From a virus, in the IMG/VR virus record IMGVR_UViG_3300045988_162176, positions 1 through 64,000 of that record: DNA of 64,000 nucleotides. The stretch is one strand, 5' to 3'. The notes beneath the pieces were generated by a model. It was not told where the DNA came from and ran no database searches. It saw only the letters and a list, made by a program, of their open reading frames with translations. The translations under genes and the position numbers were made by a program. Below are positions 1 to 62,317 of this stretch, piece after piece. How positions within the stretch are numbered: position 1 is the stretch's first letter; each line of letters opens with the position of its first letter.

Positions 1-55
1 AAAAGATATATTGAGAAAAGATATATTGAGAAAAGATATATTGAGAAAAGATATA
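1..55. repeat. Tandem 15-nt direct repeat AAAAGATATATTGAG (about 3.6 copies, cut by window edge)
   Basis: Read at 1-15, 16-30, 31-45, partial 46-55. Last unit forms inverted repeat AAAGATATA (47-55) / TATATCTTT (71-79). Confidence 0.85.
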
Positions 56-106: not shown

Positions 107-1333
107 ATGGGTAGAAAAATAATTGATTTAACAGGTAAAGATTTTGGAATGTTTCATGTAGTAAAATAGAGTGAGAAAAAATATATTACAGAAAGTGGAC
201 ATTCATTAGTTTAGTGGGATTGTGTTGATAAAGATGGAAATGAATATAAATTATTAGCGCAATATTTAAAAACTTATCCTACTGAATATAATCCATATAA
301 TAAAAAAGGCCATACAGACTCTAAATATAAAAACAATAAAAATACTTGGGTTCAACAAAAAGTTAACTCTTGGAAAGAAAATAATACTACTGAAATTAAA
401 CATCAAAGAAAAAAATATGATTTAATTGGACAAGTCTTTGGAGATTGGGAAGTTCTTGAAGAAGGCGAACCATATCAAAATAAATCTACTATATATACTA
501 GACGTACATGGAGATGTGTTTGCCATCATATTTTAAACGATGGAACAGAATGTGGTAAAGTTGAAGATGTTATTGAAGCTAATCTTGTAAGAGGTAAAAG
601 TTCTTGTTGCAAAGATTGTGTAAAACTTATTTCTTCAAAGAAAATAGAAATTGGGTAGATTTATGGAAAATTAAAAGTTGTTGAGAAAATAACAAAGGAC
701 CCTACTTTAACTGATAGATAGTGTGAATGGTTGTGTGAATGCCAATGTATATTAAAGACAAAAGTAATTCGTTTTCGGAATGTGCTCTTAAGTTCTTCTT
801 CAGTTGGAAAAGCTTGTCATCAATTCGGATGTAATACTAATGAAGTCATAACTGATGAAAATGGAAATATTTTAAAAAGAAAATGTAAAATATGTGGAGA
901 AATGAAAGATGCTTCTTGTTTTAGAAGTTCGCTACAAGCAAGAAAAAATCCAGTATGCTTAGAATGCAATCCAAGGCATCCAGTTATACCAATGACTCCT
1001 GAAGAAAAAAGTCCTCATGAAAGATATAAATTTTATCAAAATCGAGCAAAAAGTAAGGATTGTGAATTGGAATTTACAGAAGAAGAATTTGATAAATTTA
1101 CTAAATAGCCATGTTTCTATTGTGGGGGATATTCTATTAGCAAACAATATCAAGATTAGTTTTGTGGAATAGATAGAGTTGATTCTAACAAAGGGTATTC
1201 AAAAGATAATTGTGTACCGTGCTGTTTTAGTTGTAATGTTATGAAAATGGGACTTGATGTTTATGATTTCTTGGACAAAGTAGAATTGATAAACAAGAAT
1301 CTGGATAATATTAAATAGGCTTTGGAAAAATAA
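107..1333 (+). CDS. HNH homing-type endonuclease, 408 aa if 7 in-frame TAG codons are sense
   Basis: ATG 107 follows GAAAGGAAG. One frame is free of TAA/TGA until TAA 1331-1333, with TAGs at 167, 212, 656, 719, 1106, 1157 and 1316. C-terminal CFYCGG...GIDRVDSNKGYSKDNCVPCCFSCNVMK HNH motif; three Cys-rich FG..L.V N-terminal modules. Confidence 0.8.
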
Positions 1334-2457: not shown

Positions 2458-2494
2458 GCCCAGTATCCAATCCCTCAAAGAAAAGATACTGGGC
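2458..2494. terminator. Bidirectional stem-loop GCCCAGTATC/GATACTGGGC (cassette 1)
   Basis: 10-bp perfect stem after stop of 2173-2424; short T stretches on both strands. Confidence 0.6.
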
Positions 2495-2590
2495 TTCATA
2501 GAGTGCTTAGTGTGAATAAGCTCTCTGCTTAATTATGGATTACCTACATAGTCTATAATTAAGTACTAAATTACGAAAGGAGTGATGCAA

Positions 2591-2665
2591 ATGTAGAAAA
2601 TCACTTTTATTAATTACGCTCTCAACGTAGTTGGTATGATTATTTTGAAGAACCACAACTTCTAA
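2591..2665 (+). CDS. mini-ORF 1, MQKITFINYALNVVGMIILKNHNF (24 aa, TAG at codon 2)
   Basis: SD AAAGGAG 8 nt before ATG 2591, which is followed directly by TAG. Peptide aligns with 5 paralogous mini-ORFs. Confidence 0.55.
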
Positions 2666-2713
2666 GATAATTTTGTGCATTAAGAGGGTTGTGTAGGCAA
2701 TCCTCTCATTATC

Positions 2714-2742
2714 ATAATAACACATTTTAAAATGAATGTCAA
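2714..2742 (-). promoter_or_regulatory. antisense promoter TTGACA-N17-TATTAT with TGT extension (cassette 1)
   Basis: Minus-strand -35 at 2737-2742, -10 at 2714-2719, 17-nt spacer. Confidence 0.65.
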
Positions 2743-2776
2743 GGAAAAGACAATAAAACCAGAAAGGAAATGAAGC

Positions 2777-3178: not shown

Positions 3179-3222
3179 CCTCTCGACCCGAGCAAGTCGT
3201 TAAACTACTCAAACATAACAGA

Positions 3223-3248
3223 AGGAGAGATATCCCCCTATCTCTCCT
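3223..3248. terminator. Bidirectional stem-loop AGGAGAGATA/TATCTCTCCT (cassette 2)
   Basis: 10-bp stem, C-rich loop, T-rich flank on the minus strand. Confidence 0.6.
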
Positions 3249-3308
3249 CTGTAGTGAATAAGGACCTACATCCTTGTTTGCTTCTATCAATCTTCAGGAG
3301 GTAAAATA

Positions 3309-3383
3309 ATGAAGAAAATCATTAGCATTAATTATTTCTTTAATGTTGTTGTAAGCATTATTCTCAAGAACTACAACTTCTAA
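3309..3383 (+). CDS. mini-ORF 2, MKKIISINYFFNVVVSIILKNYNF (24 aa, no TAG)
   Basis: SD AGGAGG 7 nt upstream of ATG; close paralog of mini-ORF 1. Confidence 0.55.
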   Translation: MKKIISINYFFNVVVSIILKNYNF

Positions 3384-3446
3384 TAAGATGTAATTAAATA
3401 TCCTTAATAAGAGAGGTGTGTAGGCACTTCTCTTATTCTAACAACA

Positions 3447-3475
3447 AGTATAACATATAAAGTTGTGCTTGTCAA
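3447..3475 (-). promoter_or_regulatory. antisense promoter TTGACA-N17-TATACT with TGT (cassette 2)
   Basis: -35 at 3470-3475, -10 at 3447-3452 on the minus strand. Confidence 0.65.
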
Positions 3476-3502
3476 GAGTTTTATAGAAAGGAATCAAAGA
3501 AG

Positions 3503-5371: not shown

Positions 5372-5380
5372 ACATTGTTA

Positions 5381-5408
5381 GAGGGATGGAAAATAACTTC
5401 CATCCCTC
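5381..5408. terminator. Stem-loop GAGGGATGGAA/TTCCATCCCTC (cassette 3)
   Basis: 11-bp stem directly after stop of 5177-5371. Confidence 0.55.
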
Positions 5409-5499
5409 AATAGAGTGTTTAAGCCCAACTTATTCACTCACACATTAATTTAGCCTACAATAAATTAATGTCTTATTAAATTAGAAAGGAGTTTTTGCT

Positions 5500-5571
5500 A
5501 TGTAGAAAATCTTAGCAGTTGACTATTATTGGTCCACAGTAGTAGTCTTCATCATTTACAATCGTAATTAA
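5500..5571 (+). CDS. mini-ORF 3, MQKILAVDYYWSTVVVFIIYNRN (23 aa, TAG at codon 2)
   Basis: SD AAAGGAG 8 nt upstream of ATG-TAG. Stop codon lies inside the 10-bp hairpin CGTAATTAAT/ATTAATTACG. Confidence 0.55.
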
Positions 5572-5622
5572 TCCATATTAATTACGTCACAAGTAGAGAG
5601 TGTAGGCTTTCTACTTGTGTTT

Positions 5623-5651
5623 ATCTTAGCACACTTGATAATATCTGTCAA
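5623..5651 (-). promoter_or_regulatory. antisense promoter TTGACA-N17-TAAGAT with TGC (cassette 3)
   Basis: -35 at 5646-5651, -10 at 5623-5628 on the minus strand. Confidence 0.6.
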
Positions 5652-5697
5652 GTGGTAATTACAAACATTTTTTGATTTATGAAAGGAATTTAGAATT

Positions 5698-6630
5698 ATG
5701 AAGAAGATTAACCTCACCAACATCAAGAACGAAAAGTCCGTTAGCGAAGTCCTGTTCGATGCACTTAAGCCCAAAGCAATCACCAATGAACAGTCTAAAA
5801 CTGTTTATGCTCTCAAACTCTCTGTTGAGAGAGAAATTGAGAAAAGAGAAGACGGTCGTAACTGGGCTATTAGAGACCTTCCTCTTTATCTTCCTGAAGT
5901 GGATTTACACTATCAGCGTGAACCCAAAAATTATGAAGTAGCCAAAATTACCAACAACTTTAATATCAATAAAGTTGAAGTTAAAGCAGCCTCTATTCGT
6001 AAAGTTGGTAACACTTGGCATCTGTTTCTTATGGATGGTGCTCATACTTTGAGCGTTCTGCTTTATATGCAAAGCAAGGGTTTCCCCATTTATGCTATCA
6101 CTTGTAAGGTTTTTATCAATCTTACTCTGGAAGAAGAAGCAGATTTGTTTGCTACTCAGAATGAGGGCAAGACTAACCTTCGTGGCTACGAAAGATATAA
6201 AGCTGAACTTTGTGCAAAGAAGCCCACAGCAGTGATTATCAATCAGGTTACAAAGGAATTTGGTCTGACTGTTAAGACCAATCGCAATAGCACCATCAAT
6301 CGTTATAACAACATCAATGCAGTTGAAGAGCTGTATCGTATTGTTAAGCGTGATGGTGAAAACGCTCTTCGTTTTGTGTTCGCTGTTCTTCAGGGAACTG
6401 GTTGGAAGGATGATATGGTTTATACTCAGCGTATGTTGGCAGGAATTTCTGCTTGTTATAAGCACTGTGAAGATACCAAAGCGTTCAACTATTTTCTGTT
6501 GAATCTTAAGCAGTATAAGAGCTGTGATGAGTTTGTTCGTGTTGCTCAGGACAAGATTGAAGAACACGAAGGTCATCCTGCTGAAAAGATTCGTGATTAT
6601 CTTCTTACTTACATGGTTTACAAGAAGTAA
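5698..6630 (+). CDS. ParB/Srx-fold N-terminal domain protein (310 aa)
   Basis: SD GAAAGGAA. YQRE...NFN..KV......V....W.L.DGAHTL pattern resembles the ParB-like nuclease N-domain (DGQHR-type); assigned by eye. Confidence 0.6.
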   Translation: MKKINLTNIKNEKSVSEVLFDALKPKAITNEQSKTVYALKLSVEREIEKREDGRNWAIRDLPLYLPEVDLHYQREPKNYEVAKITNNFNINKVEVKAASIRKVGNTWHLFLMDGAHTLSVLLYMQSKGFPIYAITCKVFINLTLEEEADLFATQNEGKTNLRGYERYKAELCAKKPTAVIINQVTKEFGLTVKTNRNSTINRYNNINAVEELYRIVKRDGENALRFVFAVLQGTGWKDDMVYTQRMLAGISACYKHCEDTKAFNYFLLNLKQYKSCDEFVRVAQDKIEEHEGHPAEKIRDYLLTYMVYKK

Positions 6631-6638
6631 AAGAAAAG

Positions 6639-6668
6639 AGACTGATAGCTGTCCAAACTACCAGTCTC
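6639..6668. terminator. Bidirectional stem-loop GAGACTG/CAGTCTC (cassette 4)
   Basis: 7-bp stem; TTTTCTTTT on the minus strand after the stem. Confidence 0.55.
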
Positions 6669-6732
6669 ATTTAAGACACCAGACTCCTGTAAAGTCTGTT
6701 TACATAATTACTCACAGAAAGGAGTATATCAC

Positions 6733-6804
6733 ATGAAAAAATATCTTTATGTCGATATGGTTGCATAGGTTTTTGCAATCAGAGTCCTCTACAACAGGAA
6801 TTAA
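6733..6804 (+). CDS. mini-ORF 4, MKKYLYVDMVAQVFAIRVLYNRN (23 aa, TAG at codon 12)
   Basis: SD AAAGGAG 8 nt upstream of ATG. C-terminal YNRN shared with mini-ORFs 3 and 5, with Arg coded by AGG here and CGT there. Confidence 0.55.
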
Positions 6805-6873
6805 TGAAATAATCGGGGACTAAAACCTACACTCGTCAAGTAAAAGTTACAGGCTACCTTGCTTGATGAGTGT

Positions 6874-6902
6874 AATATAACACAAACAACAACACTTGTC
6901 AA
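6874..6902 (-). promoter_or_regulatory. antisense promoter TTGACA-N17-TATATT with TGT (cassette 4)
   Basis: -35 at 6897-6902, -10 at 6874-6879 on the minus strand. Confidence 0.6.
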
Positions 6903-6959
6903 GTACTTTGTAAAAATTTCTTTTAAATACTTGACACCATTAAGAAAGGAAAGTATAAT

Positions 6960-7151
6960 ATGACCAATAATAAAATTAATTTCACCATTGAAACCCTCAA
7001 TGATAACGGTTCTGGTATGAAATATACTTCTAAGGAAGAATTCATGAAAGAACTGGGTTTAATGATTGATGATTGTATTGCCAATGGCGGTACATTCTTC
7101 GACATTCAGGTTGATTCTGATGCAAGTTGCTTCTGCACTGATGAGGACTAA
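6960..7151 (+). CDS. hypothetical protein (63 aa)
   Basis: SD GAAAGGAAAG upstream of ATG. Confidence 0.65.
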   Translation: MTNNKINFTIETLNDNGSGMKYTSKEEFMKELGLMIDDCIANGGTFFDIQVDSDASCFCTDED

Positions 7152-9113: not shown

Positions 9114-11447
9114 ATGAACACCACTTATATTGACAACATCCCCAGCGAAATCATTGAAAAGGATAAAGCTATTGTAAAGAAGTTTCTCTCAACTAAAGAA
9201 AGTATTAATCCCAATCCTAATAGTTGCCCTGATATCATTGTATATTGGCAACAAAAAGCAAATGGTAAAGCTTTCCATTTGCTGAGAGGTGAATATGAAA
9301 TTATTCAACATAACGATACTATTGGGCAGTATCGTAAAGGAGTAACTGGTCATTTCAATGTGAGTAATATTCAATCTCACACAATCGTTGTTGGCTCTGG
9401 TAAAGATGCAAAAGTGGCTTATGCCAAATATTATCCTGAATTTGAAATGCTTGTGTTTGGTATCATGGGAATTAACACAAAAAAGATTCCCGAAGAGAAA
9501 AGAAATTACCATTTTATAGAGCGTTATTTTCTTTTCAAAAATTGCCCTGCTCCATTTGATGTCAATGGAGACATTGCATTTAAATCTAAAGGAGGTAAAT
9601 TCTATAGTTTAGGATTTACTAATTTTCTTCAGCATGATTTGCATAAGACTGTTTCTCATTTCTATTTTTCTCAAGCAATTGAGGAATTTACTAGGAAGGG
9701 ATGCAATCCAAGAATCAAATGGACGCAATGGACTCCCTATACATTTGCTGATTACTATAAAGCAATGTATCCTCGTACTATTTCTAAATCTTCAGCAGAT
9801 ATCTCTGAAATTGTTAATAGCTTACCAACTATTAATTTGGACGAGCTCCGTCAGTTATATCCTAAAAAAGCCGTTGATGTTAAAAACTCTTGGAATGATG
9901 AGTATCACACTGAATACAAAGATACAATTTGGACATTTAACATCTTAAATGATAATTACTGTGTTATTCGTCAGTTTGGCGGTTATTTCGGGTTTGAAGA
10001 GCAATCACGTATTCTTATTGATAATAAAGGAAAAGTAACAATCTTTAAACCCATTTCAATTATTGATGGAGTTGTCGTATTTAGAGTATCTAGCTCTTCC
10101 GATGTTGGAGTTCCTGCTGATAATGTCTGTTTCTTCAAAGGTTTTGAGGATATGTTTAAGTTTAAGAGATTATTTTATATCTCTTCTATCATCAATGATA
10201 GCGACATTATGACTAAAACAAATTCCTTAATTCTCAGGATTATTTACACTCTTAGATGTCCTGCTATCGAACAATTTTATAAAGCTGGATATAAATATAT
10301 TGCCAATTATTTCATGAGTGCGTCTGCAAAATCTGATATTGAACATTTTTTTGGATACAAAAAGTATTCTAAATCTGCAAACATTTATGAGCTTAGTGGC
10401 ATGAACAAACATCAGCTTGAATTGGTAGATAAGATGTTTGAGGAAAAGAAAAAGAGTGCCAACAAATTTGTTAACCAAGGTCTTTCTTATACTCCTCGAT
10501 GTGTAATTGAAACCGTTCGATTTGTTGCTGGCGTTAAAAACCTTTCTTCTATTACTGACAAAGATTCCGACTTTTACTTTACCATGGCAAAAAGAATGAA
10601 TAATGTTCGTTCTGACTATCGTGAGTTTTTGCATTTTGTTGGAGTAAATAACAGCGTGTACACTTTTTATTTTAATAGAAGAAATTATTGGAAAGAAAGT
10701 TTGTATATAAACAAAGAAAAAGATATCCAGTCATCAACTCCCGAACAAAATGAAAAGGATAGAAAGAATCTCCTCAAGCTTATGCGTCTTCAGGAAAAAA
10801 CAGACAAGAAAGGTATTAACGAGGATGTGTTCAGAATCTTTTCCGATGCTCTCAACCTGTTTAAGCAAATCTCAAACACTAACAGACCAGATATTGACCT
10901 TTATGCCTGTAAAGATGTTAATGAACTTCATCGTTATCACAACATGTTGATTGAAATCAACATTGCAGACAAAGAAACGAGAGATAAAGAAGAACAGGAG
11001 AGATTGAATAAGTTAGCAGCTAAACTTTATGACCAACGCAAAGAAAAGTTTGAGTATGCTGATGATAACTTCTCTATCATTGTTCCTGAAGAAATGAACA
11101 AGATTACGAAGGAAGGTGTATATCTCCATCATTGTGTTGGTGGTTATATTAGTCGTGTTGCTGAAGGTAGAACAAATATTCTATTCTTAAGAAGAAATGA
11201 AGAAATTGAAATTCCTTTCTTCACGATTGAAGTTAACAACCACAATGAAATCATTCAGATTCACGGGCTTTATAATCGTTGGCTTGGAAATGAACCTGAT
11301 GCAGTTAAGTTTGTAATTAACTGGATTTATGAAAAGGGAATTAAATGTCCTGTAAACATTGTACTTAATAAAGGTCAAGGTTATAGCGCAAGTAGTAGTA
11401 AGCTTGATGCTAAAGAATATGGTTTGGAGGGTAAAAGTTATGTCTAA
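9114..11447 (+). CDS. PcfJ-like domain protein (777 aa)
   Basis: SD GAAAGGAAA. C-terminal GVYLHHCVGGYISRVAEGRTNILFLRR...FFTIEV...IIQIHGLYNR matches the PcfJ-type pattern and the C-terminus of 16657-18270. Confidence 0.7.
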   Translation: MNTTYIDNIPSEIIEKDKAIVKKFLSTKESINPNPNSCPDIIVYWQQKANGKAFHLLRGEYEIIQHNDTIGQYRKGVTGHFNVSNIQSHTIVVGSGKDAKVAYAKYYPEFEMLVFGIMGINTKKIPEEKRNYHFIERYFLFKNCPAPFDVNGDIAFKSKGGKFYSLGFTNFLQHDLHKTVSHFYFSQAIEEFTRKGCNPRIKWTQWTPYTFADYYKAMYPRTISKSSADISEIVNSLPTINLDELRQLYPKKAVDVKNSWNDEYHTEYKDTIWTFNILNDNYCVIRQFGGYFGFEEQSRILIDNKGKVTIFKPISIIDGVVVFRVSSSSDVGVPADNVCFFKGFEDMFKFKRLFYISSIINDSDIMTKTNSLILRIIYTLRCPAIEQFYKAGYKYIANYFMSASAKSDIEHFFGYKKYSKSANIYELSGMNKHQLELVDKMFEEKKKSANKFVNQGLSYTPRCVIETVRFVAGVKNLSSITDKDSDFYFTMAKRMNNVRSDYREFLHFVGVNNSVYTFYFNRRNYWKESLYINKEKDIQSSTPEQNEKDRKNLLKLMRLQEKTDKKGINEDVFRIFSDALNLFKQISNTNRPDIDLYACKDVNELHRYHNMLIEINIADKETRDKEEQERLNKLAAKLYDQRKEKFEYADDNFSIIVPEEMNKITKEGVYLHHCVGGYISRVAEGRTNILFLRRNEEIEIPFFTIEVNNHNEIIQIHGLYNRWLGNEPDAVKFVINWIYEKGIKCPVNIVLNKGQGYSASSSKLDAKEYGLEGKSYV

Positions 11448-11619
11448 ACGTACACCTAACAATGCTATCACAGAGTATCCCCAGTACGATGGTATGTACT
11501 ATGACCGCTGTGAAGGAATCCAGCGTAAGACTCATGGCAGTTATCGGTACAAAATTAACAAGCAGTACAAAGAAAAGCGGAAGCAATATTTGTACACAAT
11601 AGAAAAAGAGCAGGAATAA
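11440..11619 (+). CDS. hypothetical basic protein (59 aa)
   Basis: ATG 11440 after GGAGGG; overlaps the upstream stop by 8 nt. Confidence 0.55.
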   Translation: MSKRTPNNAITEYPQYDGMYYDRCEGIQRKTHGSYRYKINKQYKEKRKQYLYTIEKEQE

Positions 11620-11630
11620 AATCCTGCTCT
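11607..11630. terminator. Bidirectional terminator AGAGCAGGA/TCCTGCTCT (cassette 5)
   Basis: 9-bp stem spanning the stop codon; TTCTT after the stem on plus, TTTTT on minus. Confidence 0.65.
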
Positions 11631-11705
11631 TTCTTGATATAAGCATTTCCTATAAACTGTTTATATAATTTACCCCTTGTCTAAGGAGGAAAGGAGTTGA
11701 AAGCC

Positions 11706-11777
11706 ATGTAGAGAATCTTCTATGTTGATTATTTCTATGCTATTGTGTAGATAATGGTCATCTATAATCGTAATTAA
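11706..11777 (+). CDS. mini-ORF 5, MQRIFYVDYFYAIVQIMVIYNRN (23 aa, TAG at codons 2 and 15)
   Basis: Double SD AAGGAGGAAAGGAG upstream of ATG-TAG; stop inside hairpin GTAATTAAT/ATTAATTAC. Confidence 0.55.
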
Positions 11778-11849
11778 TCTAGGACATTAATTACAAAACT
11801 ACACAGATGGTAGTTAAGAAGTATAGGATTCTTTCTATCATCTGTGTAT

Positions 11850-11878
11850 ATATTAACACACAACATCAATCTTGTCAA
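11850..11878 (-). promoter_or_regulatory. antisense promoter TTGACA-N17-TAATAT with TGT (cassette 5)
   Basis: -35 at 11873-11878, -10 at 11850-11855 on the minus strand. Confidence 0.6.
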
Positions 11879-11919
11879 GTAGTTTCTAATATTTAATTTA
11901 CTTTATTTGGTTTAAATAC

Positions 11920-11948
11920 TTGACAAACACGGATTTGAGATTTATAAT
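11920..11948 (+). promoter_or_regulatory. plus-strand promoter TTGACA-N17-TATAAT, divergent from the cassette 5 promoter
   Basis: -35 at 11920-11925, -10 at 11943-11948. About 80-nt leader to ATG 12029. The only clear sigma70-type plus-strand promoter seen in the plus block. Confidence 0.6.
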
Positions 11949-12028: not shown

Positions 12029-13039
12029 ATGGGTCTCGCCTCTTATAATACCGATAAGGTCAACGCTGTTATGGAAGCTGTTGAAAATACTCCTCGTAAG
12101 AAGTACTATGAGGATATGGGTATCACTCTTGAGAATGTTCACTCTCTTGAGTCTGCCCTTAAGCTCAGTGGTCTGGATTATTCTGTCGAAAAGCGTCCTG
12201 TCCAGTTCGTAAACAAAGTTGAGCAGGAATGGAATGGTCAGAAGATTCTGGTTGATACTCCGTTTATCATCCCTGACCAGTTTGCAACCATTCGTACTGA
12301 TACCAATGCTCCTCTGGGTATTGTCGGTAAGAACTACAATATTCTCCAGAATCGTGAAGCTTTCGACTTCCTTGACTCTCTTGCTTTGGGAGGTGCTAAG
12401 TTTGAAACTGCTGGTAGTTATGGACCTAATGGAGCTAAGAGCTTCATTACCATGTCTACTGAGCCTATGAAGATTCTGGATGATGAATTCTTGCCTACCA
12501 TGATGTTCCTTAATAGTCATGATGGTTCCAAGGCAATTCAGGCAATGTTCATCAGTATCCGTATCTTCTGTTCCAACTGCATTGCTCGTGCAACTAGAGG
12601 TGCTGAGAATCGTGTGAGTATTCGTCACAGTAATTCTATGCAGGCCAAGTTGGAACAGGCTAAGACCATTCTGCTTCAGAATACCAATTATCTTGAGCGT
12701 CTTAAAGTGGAAGCTGAGAAGCTTGCGGTTACTCCTTATTCCAAGGAAGCCTTCGAAGCTCTTGCTCGTGAGCTTTTCCCTGTCAAGACTGAGGATTCTG
12801 AGATTATTCAGATTCGTAATCTGGCTATGATTGAAAAGCTCATGACGGCTTACAATCAGGATGATTTGGCTAATTTCTCTGGAACTGCATGGCGAGCACT
12901 TCAGGCCATTTCTGACTTTGAATCTCATCCCACTCAGATGCGTAAGTCTTCCAAGTCTACCACTACGGGAGCGTTCACGGCTGTCGCAGTTAATACTATG
13001 CCTATTCTGAACTCTGTTTGGAATCGTATTGCCGCTTAA
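12029..13039 (+). CDS. DUF932-type phage/plasmid-like protein (336 aa)
   Basis: Start at ATG 12029 after GAAAGGAA. TIRTDTNAPLGIVGKNYNILQN and LNSHDGSKA motifs are typical of the DUF932/TIGR03299 family (by eye). Confidence 0.7.
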   Translation: MGLASYNTDKVNAVMEAVENTPRKKYYEDMGITLENVHSLESALKLSGLDYSVEKRPVQFVNKVEQEWNGQKILVDTPFIIPDQFATIRTDTNAPLGIVGKNYNILQNREAFDFLDSLALGGAKFETAGSYGPNGAKSFITMSTEPMKILDDEFLPTMMFLNSHDGSKAIQAMFISIRIFCSNCIARATRGAENRVSIRHSNSMQAKLEQAKTILLQNTNYLERLKVEAEKLAVTPYSKEAFEALARELFPVKTEDSEIIQIRNLAMIEKLMTAYNQDDLANFSGTAWRALQAISDFESHPTQMRKSSKSTTTGAFTAVAVNTMPILNSVWNRIAA

Positions 13040-16585: not shown

Positions 16586-16656
16586 CCCCTCCTCCCTTTA
16601 ATATATAATCACTACAAACCATACCAAACATTTGAATTAAGAAAGGAAAATTGATT

Positions 16657-18270
16657 ATGTCTAACACTGCTATTGCTAACTTCTACAAGTCTACTACACA
16701 TGATTATGCAAGTTTTTTTAAGAACTACGAAGCTTCTGCTAAAGAGAAAGAAATCAACACTCGTATCAAGCATCTCACTGACCAACTCGAAGAAGCAAGA
16801 GTCGAAATGACTAAAGTTCAGAACAACCGTTACAATAGCGATTTTACTCCTCTTGGAAAGAAAATCATTGTTCACTATAGCTCAAATCGCTCTGATGTTG
16901 AGTTGTATTTTGATTTATTCACTGGCGCTTCTACCAGTCGTGATTATCTTGCACCTAATACTTTTATCATCAAAGAAATTAATTTGAAAGGTGGTGATTT
17001 CTGGGTCAATGTTGGTTATTGCTTCCCTCTTGGGGCTATTGTATCTCGTCATTATAGATATAGAATTGCCACTAACAACTCTTCTTGCAATTTTATTATG
17101 GATGGTGAGCAATTAATTCCTATCCTTGAGCCTACCGCAAAACCTGTCAGTGATGGTGATGCTCCTGTCTATGAATCTGGAATGGGTGATAGTGCTATCT
17201 ATTTCATCTCTCAGGCTTGGGATATTCCTATTGAGAATATTGGACCTAAATACACTTTCAGAGAATTGAGATTTGCATTAAGTAGAAATAAATCTACTGA
17301 AATCATCTTCCGCACTGCTCCTAAATCCATTCAAAATGACCTTCTTAATCTTAAAATTGAAACTGCTGAACCTGTTTACAAACTTGTTCATCTTACTAAA
17401 GCAGAATATAAAGAAGCTAATGACAGAGGCATTCTTGATGATTGGATGAATTTGATGTCTATTGTTGGTTCCGCTTTTAGAGATGATAATAAAACTTATT
17501 ATGGTTTTAATGACAACATGACTCTGGAAGATTTTTGTCACTATACCAATCAGGAATGGTTTGACATCATCGAAAAAGCTAAGTATTGGGATGAGGAATT
17601 TGAATTTAATCACGTCCAAACTGGTGGATATGGTGGAAAAGTTTTCTTTAATACTTTGTCTGCTTATCTCAGGAATAATAATTCTTATAGAAATTCCAAA
17701 TTCTATCAGTTCTATACCTTTGGTAAGTTCATGGATTATGTTTGTGAGGAAACAGTCAATCAGGGCTTTAAAACTTTAAACTCGTTTATGGGTGAACTTC
17801 GTGACTATCTTGATATGTGTGTTTCCATGAATATCAAGCCTACTCTTTATAGTTCTTACCTTAAACAGACTCATGATATCACCTCTCGTAACTATGAAGT
17901 TAAGCTTACCGAGGAACAGGCTGAGATGTTTGAAAATGCTTATAAAGATTTCAAGCCTTTTATCACTGAGGATAAAATATATAGTATTATTCGTCCTAAG
18001 AATGCAGATGATGTCAAGCACGAAGGTTCTGAACTTAATCATTGTGTTGCCAGTTATATTTCTAGAATTTTCAAGAGAAATTGTCTAATTGTTTTCCTTC
18101 GTAAGACAAAAGCTACTGACAAACCCTTGGTTACTATTGAAATTGAAAACAATGCAATTGTTCAGGCAAGGGGGGCTTCCAACCGTAGTATCACTGAGGA
18201 CGAATATAAAGCTATTTGCGAGTATGCCAACAAAAACAAATTCAAAGTTCGTGTTACTCCTCGTGACTAA
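16657..18270 (+). CDS. PcfJ-like domain protein (537 aa)
   Basis: ATG 16657 after GAAAGGAAA. C-terminal GSELNHCVASYISRIFKRNCLIVFLRK...LVTIEIENNAIVQARGASNR parallels 9114-11447. Confidence 0.7.
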   Translation: MSNTAIANFYKSTTHDYASFFKNYEASAKEKEINTRIKHLTDQLEEARVEMTKVQNNRYNSDFTPLGKKIIVHYSSNRSDVELYFDLFTGASTSRDYLAPNTFIIKEINLKGGDFWVNVGYCFPLGAIVSRHYRYRIATNNSSCNFIMDGEQLIPILEPTAKPVSDGDAPVYESGMGDSAIYFISQAWDIPIENIGPKYTFRELRFALSRNKSTEIIFRTAPKSIQNDLLNLKIETAEPVYKLVHLTKAEYKEANDRGILDDWMNLMSIVGSAFRDDNKTYYGFNDNMTLEDFCHYTNQEWFDIIEKAKYWDEEFEFNHVQTGGYGGKVFFNTLSAYLRNNNSYRNSKFYQFYTFGKFMDYVCEETVNQGFKTLNSFMGELRDYLDMCVSMNIKPTLYSSYLKQTHDITSRNYEVKLTEEQAEMFENAYKDFKPFITEDKIYSIIRPKNADDVKHEGSELNHCVASYISRIFKRNCLIVFLRKTKATDKPLVTIEIENNAIVQARGASNRSITEDEYKAICEYANKNKFKVRVTPRD

Positions 18271-18962: not shown

Positions 18963-19508
18963 ATGGCTACCAAGAATAACAAAAGCAATCCTCATATCGT
19001 TTGGAGCAACTACAACCTCAATCTCGTTGATTGGACTGATGGCATTAAGGAAAGACTCGATGAACGTGGGGTAGATTACTCTGAGTGGGATGAGAATAAG
19101 TTCTATGAGGAAATGGTCGAGGTAAATAATTTGTACTTTGAAGATGAAAAGTGCAACCTTAATATTCCAACTGGACGTATCATTGAGATTGCTGATGTTG
19201 GTCTTCGGGATGGACGTAGAACAGGTTACAACCTCCTTAACGAGTATAATATCAAAGCTTGTCTTAATTTCAAGCAAGACTGTGAATATGCTGAATGGTG
19301 GGTTGATTCTCACAATAATCTTCGCTCTCGTCAGACACACCATGATGGAACTCATTATATTTTGTATAGGGAGGTGAAGCCTAAAATCACTTCTGACCAG
19401 CTTGATAATTTCTGCTGGAAGCTCTACCGTGGTGAAGCAACTTCCAAGGATATTACCAAGTATACCCGCGCTATTGGTAAGCAAATTCGCAATGTTTACG
19501 GCTGGTAA
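18963..19508 (+). CDS. hypothetical protein (181 aa), paralog of 20660-21205
   Basis: SD GAAAGGAAAA. Shares WSNYNLNL.DW, CDYAEWWVD.HNNLRSRQTHHDGTH and SKDITKYTR.IGKQI..YGW with the paralog. Confidence 0.75.
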   Translation: MATKNNKSNPHIVWSNYNLNLVDWTDGIKERLDERGVDYSEWDENKFYEEMVEVNNLYFEDEKCNLNIPTGRIIEIADVGLRDGRRTGYNLLNEYNIKACLNFKQDCEYAEWWVDSHNNLRSRQTHHDGTHYILYREVKPKITSDQLDNFCWKLYRGEATSKDITKYTRAIGKQIRNVYGW

Positions 19509-19548: not shown

Positions 19549-20379
19549 ATGAAACATTTTTATGAAAAGGATATTTTTATCAGTAAGGATGTTGCTGCTA
19601 AAATTAACAAAGCTTGTTCAACAAGTTATCCTGAAGATTGGTTCTCGGAAGATGAAACACCTTTTACACTTACCGCTAAATTTGCGGATGGAACGACAAT
19701 GGATATTCGTTGTTGTGGTTCACAAGAGGCTCCCTCTTGGTGTGAATCTATTCTTTGGGCTCCTGATGAAAACGGCGGTTTGCATGAAATAAATTGCTCT
19801 GGAGAAGTTTGTGATTCCATCCTCGGTAACTGGGAACTGGTTGACCATGATACTGAGAATAAATATATTGTCAATGTCAAAATTGAGGAGGAAAATGAAA
19901 TGCCTACTAACAAGAAGTTTAACGAAATGATTATCCATTCTGAGAAAAACAATTGTTCCCCTTACGTCTCTGTCGATACTCCTAATGGTCAGTTTAGAAT
20001 TTACTGTGAACCTGAAGATGGATATCATGGAGCGTTTATCACGTTTATTCGTGATGGTCAAGCAGTTGAGCAAGATATCTGTATGGCAGAGATTGACCCT
20101 GATGATAAGTCTGGTAATACCTTCTCTGTCAAGGTTTGGAGTGAACCTCAGTCTGAAGAGTATCAGGAAAATATTCATTTTGGTCAGTATCGCGAGCCTT
20201 GTTGTCCTTATTGTGGAAATAAAAGTGTGGATGAGGTAGATGATTTTGGAAACAAAATCAAGTTCCTTTGCCAAGAATGTGGTCAAGATTTCTTAATGAG
20301 TATTTACACAGGCGAATATTTTACTCTTAATCGTATTCCTCTTAAACCTTTTGAGGAAAAAGAAAAGGAACAGGAGTAA
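19549..20379 (+). CDS. hypothetical protein with C-terminal zinc-ribbon (276 aa)
   Basis: SD GAAAGGAAA; CCPYCGN...CQECG near the C-terminus. Confidence 0.7.
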   Translation: MKHFYEKDIFISKDVAAKINKACSTSYPEDWFSEDETPFTLTAKFADGTTMDIRCCGSQEAPSWCESILWAPDENGGLHEINCSGEVCDSILGNWELVDHDTENKYIVNVKIEEENEMPTNKKFNEMIIHSEKNNCSPYVSVDTPNGQFRIYCEPEDGYHGAFITFIRDGQAVEQDICMAEIDPDDKSGNTFSVKVWSEPQSEEYQENIHFGQYREPCCPYCGNKSVDEVDDFGNKIKFLCQECGQDFLMSIYTGEYFTLNRIPLKPFEEKEKEQE

Positions 20380-20388
20380 CCCTGTTCC
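20367..20388. terminator. Bidirectional terminator GGAACAGG/CCTGTTCC (cassette 6)
   Basis: 8-bp stem spanning the stop codon; TTTTCTTTTT after the stem on the minus strand. Confidence 0.6.
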
Positions 20389-20465
20389 TATCTAAAACTC
20401 CAGCCCCGTAAGCTGTTCATATAAATGAAACCCTTGTCTTAAGGAAGAAAAGGAGATGAAAGACC

Positions 20466-20546
20466 ATGTAGAAAATCAAATAGATAAACTACAAATTTAA
20501 CATTTATTACTTCGTGATAGTGTTAACAGGTTTCCTTGAGCTATAA
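20466..20546 (+). CDS. mini-ORF 6, MQKIKQINYKFNIYYFVIVLTGFLEL (26 aa, TAG at codons 2 and 6)
   Basis: SD AAAGGAG upstream of ATG-TAG; stop inside hairpin GTTTCCTT/AAGGAAAC; most diverged family member. Confidence 0.5.
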
Positions 20547-20606
20547 GGAAACTAAAACCTAATACACATAGGGTTGAGAGGTTACGGGTCTCTTAACTCT
20601 ATGTGT

Positions 20607-20635
20607 ATTGTAACATATCAACACAACTTTGTCAA
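20607..20635 (-). promoter_or_regulatory. antisense promoter TTGACA-N17-TACAAT with TGT (cassette 6)
   Basis: -35 at 20630-20635, -10 at 20607-20612 on the minus strand. Confidence 0.6.
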
Positions 20636-20659
20636 GTATTTTAAGAAAGGAATTTTGCT

Positions 20660-21205
20660 ATGTCTACTAAAACTAATAAGCATATTATTTGGAGCAATTA
20701 CAACCTTAATCTCGAAGATTGGATTGAGGATATCAAAGAAAATCTCAAATACTGTGGAGTTGATATCTCTACTTGGACTAGAGAGATGTTTGAGCAGGAG
20801 ATGATTGATACAAATAATTTGTATCTTGATGATGAAAAAGGCAACCTTAATATCCAGACTGAGGGTGATATTATTATCATCGCCAAGTTGGGTTTGTGGA
20901 ATTGTTTTCCTATAGCCTATAAGTATATCCCTTCCAACTGTCGCAATATCTCTAATTGCTTATGCTTTGAACCTAATTGCGATTATGCGGAATGGTGGGT
21001 TGATTTTCATAATAATCTTCGTTCAAGACAGACTCATCATGATGGTACTCATCAGTTGCTTTATCGTGAGCTTAAGCCTAATCTCTCTTGGAAACAGAAA
21101 GACAATTTCTTTAATAAGATTCTTCAGAGGACATTAACCTCTAAGGATATAACCAAGTATACTCGTTCCATCGGCAAACAGATTTGTGAAATCTACGGCT
21201 GGTAA
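20660..21205 (+). CDS. hypothetical protein (181 aa), paralog of 18963-19508
   Basis: SD GAAAGGAA; same length and motifs as 18963-19508. Confidence 0.75.
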   Translation: MSTKTNKHIIWSNYNLNLEDWIEDIKENLKYCGVDISTWTREMFEQEMIDTNNLYLDDEKGNLNIQTEGDIIIIAKLGLWNCFPIAYKYIPSNCRNISNCLCFEPNCDYAEWWVDFHNNLRSRQTHHDGTHQLLYRELKPNLSWKQKDNFFNKILQRTLTSKDITKYTRSIGKQICEIYGW

Positions 21206-22217: not shown

Positions 22218-22778
22218 ATGTCTCAATATACCAACATTGAAGCTGTTAAAAATTATATCGAACTGGCAAGAATGAATTTGATTCATCTTGGATTCACTGA
22301 ATTGTCCGATATAAAAATCGTGACAGAATGGAACACAAGAGCTAAGAACCGACTTGGGCAGTGCTGTCCTAAACGTGCTTTTGACGGCAAGCGCTATTTC
22401 GTTCTCAGCTTCAACAAGAAATATTTTGAGATTGGAGATGATAACAATGTACGAGGCACAATTATCCATGAAGTAGCTCACTGTGTTACTAATGGGTTAA
22501 GCCATGAGCATTCAAGCGGATGGTACAAAGCTATTACCAAATATAACGCTGTTTATGGCACGCATATTCAGAGATGTAGTTATGACCCTGTTTACCATGA
22601 ATATCTTAACAAACAGTCTAAATCAAGCAACAATTACAAAATCTATTGTGATTGCTGTAAGAAGGTGGTGAAAACTTATCAGCGTAATTGCAACACAGTT
22701 CAGGGTATCAGGTCTAATCCTTCTGGTTGGAGATGTGGTGGCTGTGGTAAAACAGGAACTCTTAAGCTTTTGAGTTAA
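22218..22778 (+). CDS. SprT-like zinc metallopeptidase domain protein (186 aa)
   Basis: Start at ATG 22218 after GAAAGGA; HEVAH (HExxH) motif plus C-terminal CDCC...CGGCG zinc ribbon. Confidence 0.65.
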   Translation: MSQYTNIEAVKNYIELARMNLIHLGFTELSDIKIVTEWNTRAKNRLGQCCPKRAFDGKRYFVLSFNKKYFEIGDDNNVRGTIIHEVAHCVTNGLSHEHSSGWYKAITKYNAVYGTHIQRCSYDPVYHEYLNKQSKSSNNYKIYCDCCKKVVKTYQRNCNTVQGIRSNPSGWRCGGCGKTGTLKLLS

Positions 22779-26947: not shown

Positions 26948-27081
26948 AAGGAGGTGATGTCCATGTAGATTCCTTAAAATCTAATGAAAGGAGGTGAAGC
27001 GTATAACTATCGAAGGTATTTTGCTTTGCTTCGAGATTGCAATTGCAATCCTGTGGCTCATTGGTAGAGCTAAATAAGATT

Positions 27082-61019: not shown

Positions 61020-61200
61020 AGAAATTGAAATCCTTACGGATAATTCTTACTGCTTCATAATATATGCTTTCACGATTATAAATAATCCGCTATTCGCAGG
61101 TCCTTGTATATTCCACAGTCGTAAATTCCCGAAATAGCCTTCGGTACATACTTATGATTGCTTAATTATACAATTTCATAAGTTAAAGCATCTCTCAAAT
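61020..61200 (-). ncRNA. candidate TnpB guide RNA (omega/reRNA) scaffold
   Basis: Overlaps the tnpB 3' end and the 150-nt ORF-free tail. Minus-sense hairpins CCGAA..TTCGG, GATTAT..ATAATC and ATCC-GTAA-GGAT. Confidence 0.4.
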
Positions 61201-62317
61201 TAAGACTTGCATTGAAATCTCTATCTGCAATATAACCACATGAACAGTAGTATACTCTGTCTGAAAGTTTTAAGTCTTTATTAATATTACCACAACAATG
61301 ACATAATTTAGAAGAGGGATAAAATCTATCTACAATTCTTAATTCAATATCATTTTCGGCACATTTAACTTTTAATTTTGTTCTAAATTCATAAAACTTT
61401 TGTGCGGCAATAGCTTTTGAAAGATACTTATTCTTCATCATACCTGATATATCTAAATTTTCAATAGTTATATAAGATGGCTTGGTTTTTACTATCTCAG
61501 CTATTATTTTATTGATATAATCAGTTCGAATATTAGTTATTTTATGATAAAGTTTTTGTACTTTAAGTTTTTGTTTTTGTATATTTTTTTGAGTGCTGCC
61601 TCCTTTCTTAAAATTTTCATATTTACGAGAAAGACATCGTTGTTCTCTTCGTAATTGTTTTTCTATTTTTTTTATTTCCCTTGATTTGTTGATATTTTTA
61701 TATATTTTACCATTTGAAATAACGGCAAAATCTTTCAAACCCAAATCAATTCCTATACCTTCATTAAAATTGTGCGCAATTTGAATATTTGGCATCTCTA
61801 CTAAAACAGATACAAAATATTTATTTGCTTTAATAGATACTGTGCCGCTCTTAATTTTCAAACCGCTTTTAGATACTGGTATATAACCTTTTTCTTTTAA
61901 ACGAACCCATCCCAAACTTGGAATTTTAATTCTATGTCTTTCACAAAGACAATCGGTTAAATTATTTTTAACAAAATACATTTTTACATCAGATTTTCCT
62001 TTTTTCTTAAATTTAGGATAACCTGATTGATGTTTAAAAAATTTTGTAAAAGCAGCATATCCATCTTCAATAGATTTTTTTACTGCTTTTGAATATACTT
62101 CTTTAATCCATATTTTGTCAGGATTGTTTGGAATATATTCATTATTAAGCCATAAACTAAAACTTTTTCCTGTTACAAATTTTTTATTTCGGTCATATAA
62201 TTCTTTATTATAAGACAAATAAAAATTGTAAATATATCTACAAGTCCCAATTGTTTTATTAATTTGAATCTTTTGTTCTTTTGTTGGATTTATTTCCGTT
62301 TTAAAACTTTTTAACAT
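61166..62317 (-). CDS. tnpB: TnpB RNA-guided nuclease (IS605 OrfB family, 383 aa)
   Basis: GIDLGLKDF, ITIENL and ADRDFNASLNL RuvC-like D/E/D motifs with a CHCCG...CSCG zinc finger. No in-frame TAG. Confidence 0.85.
   Translation of the reverse strand: MLKSFKTEINPTKEQKIQINKTIGTCRYIYNFYLSYNKELYDRNKKFVTGKSFSLWLNNEYIPNNPDKIWIKEVYSKAVKKSIEDGYAAFTKFFKHQSGYPKFKKKGKSDVKMYFVKNNLTDCLCERHRIKIPSLGWVRLKEKGYIPVSKSGLKIKSGTVSIKANKYFVSVLVEMPNIQIAHNFNEGIGIDLGLKDFAVISNGKIYKNINKSREIKKIEKQLRREQRCLSRKYENFKKGGSTQKNIQKQKLKVQKLYHKITNIRTDYINKIIAEIVKTKPSYITIENLDISGMMKNKYLSKAIAAQKFYEFRTKLKVKCAENDIELRIVDRFYPSSKLCHCCGNINKDLKLSDRVYYCSCGYIADRDFNASLNLRDALTYEIV

Follow-up and report, generated by a model that had tools for sequence, protein, structure and literature searches.

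Several short open reading frames (ORFs) in a viral genome open with ATG TAG behind a strong Shine-Dalgarno (SD) sequence, and raise the question of why a codon commonly read as stop should be kept next to a well-equipped start. The ORFs reside in a stretch of 64,000 nucleotides (positions 1 to 64,000 of IMG/VR record IMGVR_UViG_3300045988_162176, hereafter the window), which is part of the 214,176-bp human-gut contig ena:ERZ27296301:k119_55060. An earlier note on this DNA had singled out six mini-ORFs, four of them of this kind and among these that at 5500-5571, and proposed that the cassettes carrying them could sense whether TAG is recoded. The cassettes are read here, with a probability of about 0.55, as self-contained type I toxin-antitoxin-like modules to which a genetic-code lock has been added. 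This reading draws on comparative sequence analysis.

A nhmmer profile built from the repeats matches exactly six cassettes in the window, each about 290 bp long (Table 1). Each cassette features a plus-strand mini-ORF of 23-26 codons, preceded at a distance of 8-10 nt by an SD of the GAAAGGAG type. Re-reading of the sequence and translation confirmed what had been noted: four of the six mini-ORFs (2591, 5500, 11706, 20466) open with ATG TAG, and additional TAGs are found at codon 12 of copy 4, codon 15 of copy 5 and codon 6 of copy 6, which makes 7 TAGs among 143 sense codons (149 codons, stops included). The pattern AGGAG-N6-11-ATGTAG is matched five times in the window, against 0.10 matches expected in shuffled sequence; the GGAG-type SDs concerned are those of the four mini-ORFs and of a fifth site at 26963. 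A ribosome using the standard code would terminate after one codon, as had been pointed out, in these four copies; copy 4 would yield an 11-residue fragment only.

TAG is used differently in the surrounding genes. As GC skew and ORF layout show, the window falls into two gene blocks, one on the plus strand (1 to ~28,550), the other on the minus strand (~28,600-64,000). According to a simple gene model, 48 other genes of the plus block comprise 7,533 codons, with 200 CAA or CAG codons and no in-frame TAG; the absence of in-frame TAG is partly a product of ORF construction, while the absence of TAG as stop codon (44 TAA, 4 TGA, 0 TAG) is an independent fact. TAG occurs 130 times out of frame in the same genes, hence the trinucleotide itself is not depleted. 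The ratio of TAG to CAA/CAG is 7:0 in the mini-ORFs and 0:200 in the 48 genes (Fisher p = 3e-13). The only long gene of the block that uses TAG encodes an HNH endonuclease (107-1333, plus strand), with 7 in-frame TAGs and a normal HNH motif, so that the codon counts bear out the statement that about 48 plus-strand genes, the HNH gene apart, lack TAG. A 15-bp tandem repeat (AAAAGATATATTGAG, ~3.7 copies, window 1-55) lies immediately 5' of the HNH gene.

Relatives of the cassettes were collected by pattern scans of IMG/VR followed by a profile search, which gave 120 cassette hits from ~20 contigs. The sources were ~15 IMG/VR phage contigs of 108-220 kb, assemblies from ENA, Logan and JGI, and one contig of a metagenome-assembled genome (MAG). 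The collection includes 74 distinct mini-ORF sequences, corresponding to 66 distinct peptides. Differences between related copies, counted in an earlier set of 33 sequences, fall at codon positions 1, 2 and 3 in the proportion 221/166/415. The invariant Arg22 is encoded by AGG, AGA, CGT or CGC, Leu19 by CTC, CTA, CTG or TTG, Ser6 by AGC, TCA, TCG or TCC. Mini-ORFs stop with TAA in 70 of the 74 versions, with TGA in 4, never with TAG. By these substitution patterns the mini-ORFs are real coding sequences, and purifying selection on their amino acids points to a peptide product or to a nascent-chain effect. Predicted products, in which each TAG is read as Gln, are MQKILAVDYYWSTVVVFIIYNRN and paralogous peptides. 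They combine a basic N-terminus and a polar C-terminus with a core of ~17 residues that are hydrophobic or beta-branched (mean hydropathy 0.8-1.8 over residues 4-20).

That TAG is decoded within the mini-ORFs follows from its exchange with CAA and CAG among orthologous cassettes. TAG is found in the family at codons 2, 6, 10, 12, 14 and 15, and all 11 CAA/CAG codons of the family fall at codons 6, 12 or 15, at sites where other members have TAG; one orthologue group contains both MDRxIS and MDRQIS (x, TAG). A second line of evidence comes from a YonO-type RNA polymerase gene (Pfam PF05183), located upstream of the window on the opposite strand, which has 3 in-frame TAGs. Homologues of the polymerase have Q at all three positions. 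The motif QSRQIDKTKIG begins xSRx here, and both TAGs correspond to CAG in the DNA of the relative L418, which makes the evidence non-circular. Both marks of genetic code 15 are thus present: TAG is unused as terminator (0 of 48 plus-strand genes, 0 of 74 mini-ORFs), and in the alignments in-frame TAG faces Gln of relatives, at mini-ORF codons 6, 12 and 15 and in the polymerase. The NT5C-like gene adjoining the polymerase gene has 2 in-frame TAGs. In a close relative, each of the genes that follow the polymerase gene, YonG-like and CHAP-domain genes among them, has 1-6 TAGs. The phage polymerase itself would, by its codons, be under the gating of a code switch. The NT5C-like gene precedes the polymerase gene on the same strand, and a host-type extended -10 promoter is found directly 5' of it (L042 3242-3214, minus strand). 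The suppressor tRNA invoked by the earlier note remains an assumption as far as the window goes, which contains no tRNA gene.

Codon 2 behaves differently from the other TAG sites. In the 74 versions it is TAG in 57, AAG in 12, AAA in 4, AGT in 1, and never CAA or CAG; internal Gln sites are TAG in 30 cases and CAA/CAG in 11. The comparison gives a Fisher p of 3e-5, which is indicative only, as family members are related and the counts not phylogenetically independent. The predominance of TAG at codon 2 and the lack of CAA/CAG suggest that a stop-like codon, and not glutamine, is selected there. At least one TAG is found in 57 of the 66 peptides, and where codon 2 is Lys or Ser, TAG is often found at codon 12, 14 or 15 (MKKYLYVDMVAx..., MKRIFFVSYVYNFxx..., MSKIIHIDYTYNTCx...). 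TAG makes up 5.0% of the codons of the family, compared with 0.8% in the TAG-using late block. In the stretches scanned (the window, L042, L045, L046, L285, L286) SD-ATG-TAG heads no long gene. As four of the six window mini-ORFs are start-stops under the standard code and TAG is decoded in these ORFs, production of the peptide should depend on the recoded state.

The fifth ATG-TAG, said to follow a perfect SD at 26963, is indeed there, and makes a 4-codon ORF (SD-ATG-TAG-ATT-CCT-TAA) if TAG is read as Gln. It is kept in 7 relatives, one change being a TAA-to-TGA swap that preserves the stop. The start-stop lies 25 nt before the second SD of a 24-codon hydrophobic ORF (27003-27077), which shows synonymous changes between genomes; in the relative L295 this ORF is found in a plain SD-ATG version, lacking the start-stop. 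The site was tried as a seventh cassette and rejected, since the cassette profile does not match it. The recurrence of SD-ATG-TAG beside a small hydrophobic ORF supports the view that it is a design element.

Antisense pairing had been mentioned only in passing in the earlier note; minus-strand promoter and terminator signals that enclose the whole ORF have now been found. Every cassette of the window ends, 3' of the ORF, in the minus-strand promoter CTTGACA-N-TGnTAnnnT, which has a 17-nt spacer and a TG extension. CTTGACA-N13-16-TGNTANNNT is matched 12 times in the window, always on the minus strand, against 0.08 matches expected; six matches are at the cassettes, six upstream of genes of the minus block. 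Among the 27 distinct cassettes aligned, no change occurs at the -35, TG and -10 positions, while the spacer varies. Canonical minus-strand intrinsic terminators are located upstream of the SD in four of the six cassettes (2, 4, 5 and 6). The predicted antisense RNAs measure ~230-245 nt, and would overlap hairpin B and the ORF together with its start codon and SD. Terminator stems feature 80 G-U versus 3 C-A cells in minus orientation, 21 versus 15 in plus orientation, and hairpin B, located 3' of the ORF, has the reverse signature (82 G-U versus 3 C-A in plus orientation); the strand specificity of these signatures supports transcription of both strands. Type I systems are recognized by a small (<60 aa) hydrophobic ORF with its own ribosome-binding site, and by an antisense RNA gene with its own promoter which overlaps the toxin mRNA; both features are found in the cassettes, the second in silico. 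Perfect (12/12) sigma-70-type plus-strand promoters are located at 6931-6959 and 11920-11948, back to back with antisense promoters 4 and 5. The -10 box of the former abuts the ATG at 6960, so that the gene would be either leaderless or outside the transcript.

The sense RNA appears to be structured as well. RNAalifold gave no consensus for hairpin B over mixed paralogues, the stems being in different registers; per-orthologue alifold runs and counts of G-U versus C-A cells were used instead, for hairpin B as for the terminator stems. The plus strand of hairpin B is the more stable in 27/27 cassettes, and 16 compensatory pairs were found within orthologue groups. Hairpin C is located 5' of the SD, with its loop 43-61 nt upstream of the ATG, and the loop is complementary to that of hairpin B. 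Four types of loop pairs are found in the window; a fifth covarying type, TGTGGG/CCCACA, resides in L040 (matched by eye, as the script alignment was one base off). In 26 of 27 cassettes the hairpin-C loop contains the complement of the B-loop hexamer; cross-type comparisons gave no such match. A single loop match is not rare by chance, hence the evidence lies in the covariation. In the fold of the cassette-4 sense RNA, CCUGUAA coincides exactly with a 7-nt loop; in that of the cassette-5 antisense RNA the two loop elements are paired directly. Since a cis-antisense pair needs no internal complementarity, it is an intramolecular contact that selection acts on. Covariation of the loops further implies a functional sense RNA whose start lies upstream of hairpin C. 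The conserved TTTAYATAAT which follows hairpin C, a candidate plus-strand promoter for the mini-ORF, features neither a -35 box nor a TG element. Hairpin B lacks a U-tract in five of the six copies; a U-rich stretch follows it in cassette 3.

Taken together, the coding nature of the mini-ORFs, the reading of TAG as Gln, the selection of TAG at codon 2, the antisense promoter signals and the covariation of the loops are regarded, from the alignments, as very probably correct. The type I-like reading goes further. The plus strand would provide a strong SD and an ORF for a small hydrophobic, probably membrane-active peptide. The minus-strand host-type promoter, which looks constitutive, would direct synthesis of an antisense RNA spanning the ORF, the start codon and the SD, and ending in most copies at an intrinsic terminator. 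Judging from known type I systems, this RNA would block translation, trigger cleavage of the sense RNA, or both. Loops C and B may close the module by a kissing interaction. In a host using the standard code the ribosome would start and stop at once, which would preclude even a truncated hydrophobic peptide; synthesis of the full-length product would become possible after the phage has turned TAG into a Gln codon. We infer, on this basis, that both transcripts are made, that the antisense RNA is a repressor, and that the peptide is toxic or membrane-active and is expressed late. The peptides may serve to damage membranes late or to time lysis, to shut off the host, or to kill in an addiction-like manner. 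Autonomy of the module is indicated by a predicted antisense RNA bounded by the cassette, and by tandem and decayed copies in relatives; the occurrence of multiple diverged paralogues resembles that of chromosomal type I families.

A more tentative extension is that of a genetic-code AND-gate, in which a membrane-active peptide might be made only when TAG is Gln and the antisense RNA has been outrun. If so, the phage would tie an effector directly to completion of its own code switch, and the effector could depolarise membranes, time lysis, shut off the host, or kill cells in which the programme is lost or mistimed. The codon-2 TAG would then act as a start-stop made for the purpose and lifted by recoding, a kind of regulation by codon reassignment of which no earlier description is known.

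Several observations weigh against the type I-like reading. The hydrophobic core of the peptides is short, rich in Tyr, Val and Ile, and includes a conserved Asp or Asn at position 8, unlike a typical transmembrane helix. Searches of Pfam and PADLOC with the peptides (E up to 10) gave no match. Rfam searches of three cassettes (E up to 5) returned no family, and the antisense RNA is unmatched; Ref66 was hit nearby at 19 bits, compared with a threshold of 92 bits. Cassettes 1 and 3 feature, in place of a canonical antisense terminator, a hairpin devoid of a U-tract, which in cassette 3 (5381-5408) makes for a weak terminator. Plus-block genes are served by host-type promoters too, so that promoter type does not imply an order of events in which the antisense RNA is early and the peptide late. 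TAG is altogether missing from three paralogue types (9 of 66 peptides), window copy 2 among them, and the gate is thus not universal. Lastly, a suppressor tRNA was not found in the window, in L042-L047 and L285-L287, or at loci of relatives, a search over 30 loci and ~50 kb of flanking or related sequence that covered only part of the 214-kb genome; a collection-wide tRNA(CUA) pattern returned no contig of this clade among the matches listed.

The proposal of a recoding-state sensor stands in so far as TAG is decoded and the peptide should need recoding; that the cassette is mainly an RNA switch acting in cis sits poorly with purifying selection on the amino acids. In its fuller form, as a cis-acting sensor or leader peptide, what matters would be the act of translation, or stalling of the nascent chain at the stop codon, rather than a free peptide: with TAG as stop, the ribosome would depart at codon 2; with TAG decoded, it would reach and open hairpin A, and alter hairpin B, the C-B kissing, antisense access or read-through into the gene downstream. 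This explanation is thought unlikely, though several features fit it. The stop codon had been placed within a hairpin in three copies; this is borne out by folding in cassettes 3 and 5, while the third, in cassette 6, is visible by eye and unpaired in the fold. The non-coding 3' arm of hairpin A stays complementary to the coding 5' arm in orthologues despite loop changes, pairing in cassette 3 being kept through wobble changes. Hairpin B is a plus-strand RNA structure, which in cassette 3 precedes the U-rich stretch, and the separate conserved SD-ATG-TAG at 26963 lies upstream of the ribosome-binding site of another ORF. Within each subfamily, conservation is highest at the C-terminus (YNRN, KNYNF, TGFLEL), as it is in arrest peptides such as TnaC; yet the motifs differ among subfamilies, which does not suit a single ribosome-stalling mechanism, and synonymous-biased change extends along the whole peptide instead of a few regulatory codons. 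Moreover, hairpin A is missing from the other three window copies and from some orthologues of copy 6, and five of the six hairpin B copies do without a U-tract. Genes downstream of cassettes 4 and 5 have perfect plus-strand promoters of their own (6931, 11920) and do not depend on read-through; together with tandem cassettes of relatives, which have no intervening gene, these promoters argue against control of a downstream gene.

Antisense transcription could itself be the main function, six strong host-type promoters being directed against the plus-strand operons and working as insulators or as sources of double-stranded RNA at which RNase III cuts the long plus transcripts into pieces, with the mini-ORF as a secondary feature. 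The promoter is the most invariant element of the cassette and its pattern recurs six times upstream of minus-block genes, cassettes reside only in intergenic gaps of a co-directional gene block, and in some tandem cassettes one antisense promoter serves two modules. A pure insulator would, however, need no ORF, and selection on amino acids, the strong SD, the enrichment and position of TAG and terminators that confine the antisense RNA to the cassette would all be left unexplained, which makes this account rather improbable. It is highly improbable, and contradicted by the comparisons, that the cassettes are decaying selfish repeats, remnants of a small mobile or duplicated element in which TAGs act as inactivating nonsense mutations. 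The dispersal of the copies and their differing numbers from genome to genome fit such an origin, as do some clearly decayed copies in relatives (ACG start, in-frame TAA, frameshift, truncations). TAG is nevertheless a sense codon in this genome, it occupies the same codon in 57 of 74 otherwise diverged versions, the sequence downstream is under coding selection, and intact copies are never interrupted by TAA or TGA.

The type I-like module has its closest counterparts in the Ibs/Sib pairs of E. coli, which likewise combine a very short hydrophobic ORF, an antisense RNA opposite the whole ORF and its ribosome-binding site, and several diverged copies. Ibs ORFs encode 18-19 aa (23-26 codons here), are chromosomal and not phage-borne, and have no stop-codon gate. 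The cassettes have no sequence similarity to them, Pfam and Rfam being unmatched, and we know of no covarying 5'-3' loop pair in Ibs/Sib. In hok/sok and in AapA1/IsoA1 of Helicobacter the toxin mRNA is kept inert by a long-distance 5'-3' interaction, and antisense loops make contact at the initiation region. The putative C-B contact resembles this closure of hok and AapA1 mRNAs, and the antisense RNA would likewise reach the initiation region. Those systems feature extended 5'-3' helices, 3' processing, toxins of 30-50 aa and a short antisense RNA over the 5' part; the cassettes differ from them by a putative 6-7-nt loop-loop contact and by a probable dependence on the genetic code. Type I modules of Bacillus phage SPbeta (bsrG/SR4, yonT/SR6), as those of C. 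difficile type, encode toxins of 38-58 aa, have antisense RNAs mainly over the 3' end, and use the standard code. SPbeta is comparable in being a Bacillota phage with type I modules, and shares a YonO-like RNA polymerase and YonG-like genes with the present phage; cassettes have no sequence similarity to SPbeta or C. difficile modules. Type I modules are known from Clostridioides difficile prophages (PMC7699646, PMC5961336), and the hok/sok family includes the prophage pair hokW/sokW, one member being reported to aid phage release (PMC8621323).

Recoded stop codons have been proposed to time the expression of late and lysis genes of gut phages, and large recoded clades are predicted to infect Firmicutes or Bacteroidetes (10.1101/2021.08.26.457843; PMC9523058). 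The strong SD sites found here suggest a Bacillota host. The present genomes (~155-220 kb) fit those phages in size, in code-dependent translation through in-frame TAG and in neighbours that avoid TAG. In those phages, TAGs are scattered over ordinary structural and lysis genes; in the cassettes TAG sits at codon 2, its density is about six-fold higher, the surrounding block is otherwise TAG-free, and recoding is combined with a putative antisense RNA. Start-stop elements, in which AUG is followed by a stop codon, have been described in bacteria (10.1101/520783) and eukaryotes (PMC13338717). Four of the six cassettes and the 26963 site are exact SD-AUG-stop arrangements under the standard code. 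Classical elements have no conserved coding sequence after the stop, whereas the next 21-24 codons of the cassettes are conserved as protein, and further TAGs among them swap with Gln codons; the cassettes were therefore not assigned to this class, being start-stops only under the host code. In trpL, ErmCL and TnaC, a short ORF with a strong SD and critical codons within it is followed by hairpins. The cassettes share the short ORF with a strong SD and the hairpins 3' of it; they differ by an integral antisense promoter, by independent promoters after some copies, and by having no evident terminator/antiterminator alternative, for which no systematic search of alternative pairings was made. 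Classification as a transcription attenuator with a leader peptide was discarded, as hairpin B has no U-tract in five of six copies and consensus promoters follow cassettes 4 and 5. In full-text literature searches, recoding as a timer, phage-borne type I systems and start-stop elements were each found described, and no combination of them.

All cassettes found belong to this clade of gut phages, with contigs of 108-220 kb, or to the one MAG contig. GenBank phages gave no nucleotide match to 25 kb of the window in a near search, or to cassette 3 in a distant search; a search with the DUF932 protein encoded in the window returned only relatives of <31% identity, and no close annotated GenBank phage. 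When 185,579 bacterial and archaeal genomes were scanned with a pattern that does not depend on TAG, true cassettes turned up on a single 28-kb MAG contig only (five cassettes); chromosomal homologues in standard-code genomes were not found. Two relatives differ in their use of TAG. L420, whose RNA polymerase is 71% identical, does without TAG, whether as sense or as stop codon, throughout 38 genes (6,231 codons), and no cassette lies less than 10 kb from its polymerase gene. In L418, with a polymerase 60% identical, TAG recoding is heavy (genes have up to 10 TAGs) and 4-5 cassettes are present. One clade thus includes TAG-free as well as TAG-recoded relatives, and the comparison, single as it is (n = 1 each), suggests that cassettes and recoding occur together. 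Tandem cassettes reside in some relatives, the upstream one lacking its own antisense promoter, and decayed copies were found (ACG for ATG with an in-frame TAA; a frameshift), indicating that the family gains and loses copies.

Earlier evidence for recoding as a timer lies in the distribution of recoded codons in ordinary late genes. A conditional stop held at codon 2, never replaced by a synonymous Gln codon, within a TAG-free block, looks like selection for the switch itself. Being <300 bp long, self-contained and multi-copy, the unit is an easy test system. Large gut phages would gain with it a family of type I-like modules, and it illustrates how gene callers can miss short recoded ORFs. 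Should the peptides prove toxic, the cassettes would be a ready-made code-dependent kill switch for synthetic biology.

Table 1. Coordinates of cassettes, cassette parts and other features (window positions, unless a locus is named; x, TAG)
Feature	Coordinates	Strand	Remarks
Cassette 1, whole module	2480-2743	+	profile hit 2464-2756
Cassette 1, hairpin	2500-2526		
Cassette 1, hairpin-C loop	2543-2548		CCTACA
Cassette 1, SD	2579-2582		
Mini-ORF 1	2591-2665	+	MxKITFINYALNVVGMIILKNHNF; TAG codon 2 (2594-2596)
Cassette 1, hairpin B	2683-2706		loop TGTAGG
Antisense promoter 1	2714-2743	-	CTTGACA-17-TATTAT, TG extension; position 2742
Cassette 2, whole module	3212-3476	+	profile hit 3190-3491
Cassette 2, terminator	3249-3222	-	
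Cassette 2, hairpin-C loop	3265-3270		CCTACA
Cassette 2, SD	3297-3300		
Mini-ORF 2	3309-3383	+	MKKIISINYFFNVVVSIILKNYNF; sole window copy without TAG
Cassette 2, hairpin B	3406-3437		loop TGTAGG
Antisense promoter 2	3447-3476	-	CTTGACA-17-TATACT, TG extension; position 3475
Cassette 3, profile hit	5381-5668		
Cassette 3, hairpin at predicted antisense 3' end	5381-5408	-	no U-tract
Cassette 3, hairpin-C loop	5454-5459	+	CCTACA; complementary to hairpin-B loop
Cassette 3, SD core GGAG (GAAAGGAG)	5488-5491	+	8 nt before ATG
Mini-ORF 3	5500-5571	+	MxKILAVDYYWSTVVVFIIYNRN; TAG codon 2 (5503-5505); TAA stop 5569-5571
Cassette 3, hairpin A	5563-5586	+	10-bp stem around stop codon; found by folding
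Cassette 3, hairpin B	5588-5619	+	14-bp stem, loop GTGTAGGC; TGTAGG 5601-5606
Antisense promoter 3	5623-5652	-	CTTGACA-17-TAAGAT, TG extension; position 5651; predicted start near 5616
Predicted antisense RNA 3	5375-5616	-	~240 nt; spans hairpin B, mini-ORF, SD, hairpin C
Cassette 4, whole module	6629-6903	+	profile hit 6609-6918
Cassette 4, terminator	6668-6638	-	with U-tract
Cassette 4, hairpin-C loop	6686-6691		CCTGTA
Cassette 4, SD	6721-6724		
Mini-ORF 4	6733-6804	+	MKKYLYVDMVAxVFAIRVLYNRN; TAG codon 12 (6766-6768)
Cassette 4, hairpin B	6828-6874		TACAGG 6848-6853
Antisense promoter 4	6874-6903	-	CTTGACA-17-TATATT, TG extension; position 6902
Cassette 5, whole module	11597-11879	+	profile hit 11579-11891
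Cassette 5, terminator	11634-11603	-	with U-tract
Cassette 5, hairpin-C loop	11649-11654		CCTATA
Cassette 5, SD	11693-11696		
Mini-ORF 5	11706-11777	+	MxRIFYVDYFYAIVxIMVIYNRN; TAG codons 2, 15 (11709, 11748)
Cassette 5, hairpin A	11770-11794		found by folding
Cassette 5, hairpin B	11800-11848		TATAGG 11822-11827
Antisense promoter 5	11850-11879	-	CTTGACA-17-TAATAT, TG extension; position 11878
Cassette 6, whole module	20357-20636	+	profile hit 20341-20650
Cassette 6, terminator	20389-20366	-	with U-tract
Cassette 6, hairpin-C loop	20405-20410		CCCGTA
Cassette 6, SD	20452-20455		
Mini-ORF 6	20466-20546	+	MxKIKxINYKFNIYYFVIVLTGFLEL; TAG codons 2, 6 (20469, 20481)
Cassette 6, stop-codon hairpin	~20527-20551		by eye
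Cassette 6, hairpin B	20560-20610		TACGGG 20583-20588
Antisense promoter 6	20607-20636	-	CTTGACA-17-TACAAT, TG extension; position 20635
SD-ATG-TAG-ATT-CCT-TAA	26949-26977	+	4-codon ORF under TAG = Gln
Small hydrophobic ORF	27003-27077	+	ITIEGILLCFEIAIAILWLIGRAK; own SD, ATA first codon, 24 codons
PcfJ-like genes	9114-11447, 16651-18270	+	
DUF932 gene	12029-13039	+	
ParB-like DUF6551 gene	5698-6630	+	
SprT-like gene	22218-22778	+	
Polymerase and NT5C-like genes	L042 1-3182		7.8 kb upstream of window position 1
Tandem/decayed cassettes	L009 3369-2875; L008 8474-8200; L135 1921-1642		

Other features of the window were recorded. The plus block encodes two PcfJ-like proteins, one DUF932 protein, one ParB-like DUF6551 protein and one SprT-like protein, a set commoner on conjugative elements and in their leading regions than in phage early regions. 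On the minus strand, a TnpB-like ORF of the IS605 family is located at 61166-62317 (Pfam OrfB_IS605, Cas12f1-like_TNB), and a RAGATH-18 RNA match (61047-61119, 59.9 bits) is found directly downstream of it. The pair is absent at the same place in L045 and L047, a recent insertion being therefore likely. Two paralogous genes of 181 codons (18963-19508 and 20660-21205, plus strand), 70-75% identical in nucleotide sequence over several stretches, bracket the gene at 19549-20379 and cassette 6, an arrangement which suggests a segmental duplication around this cassette.

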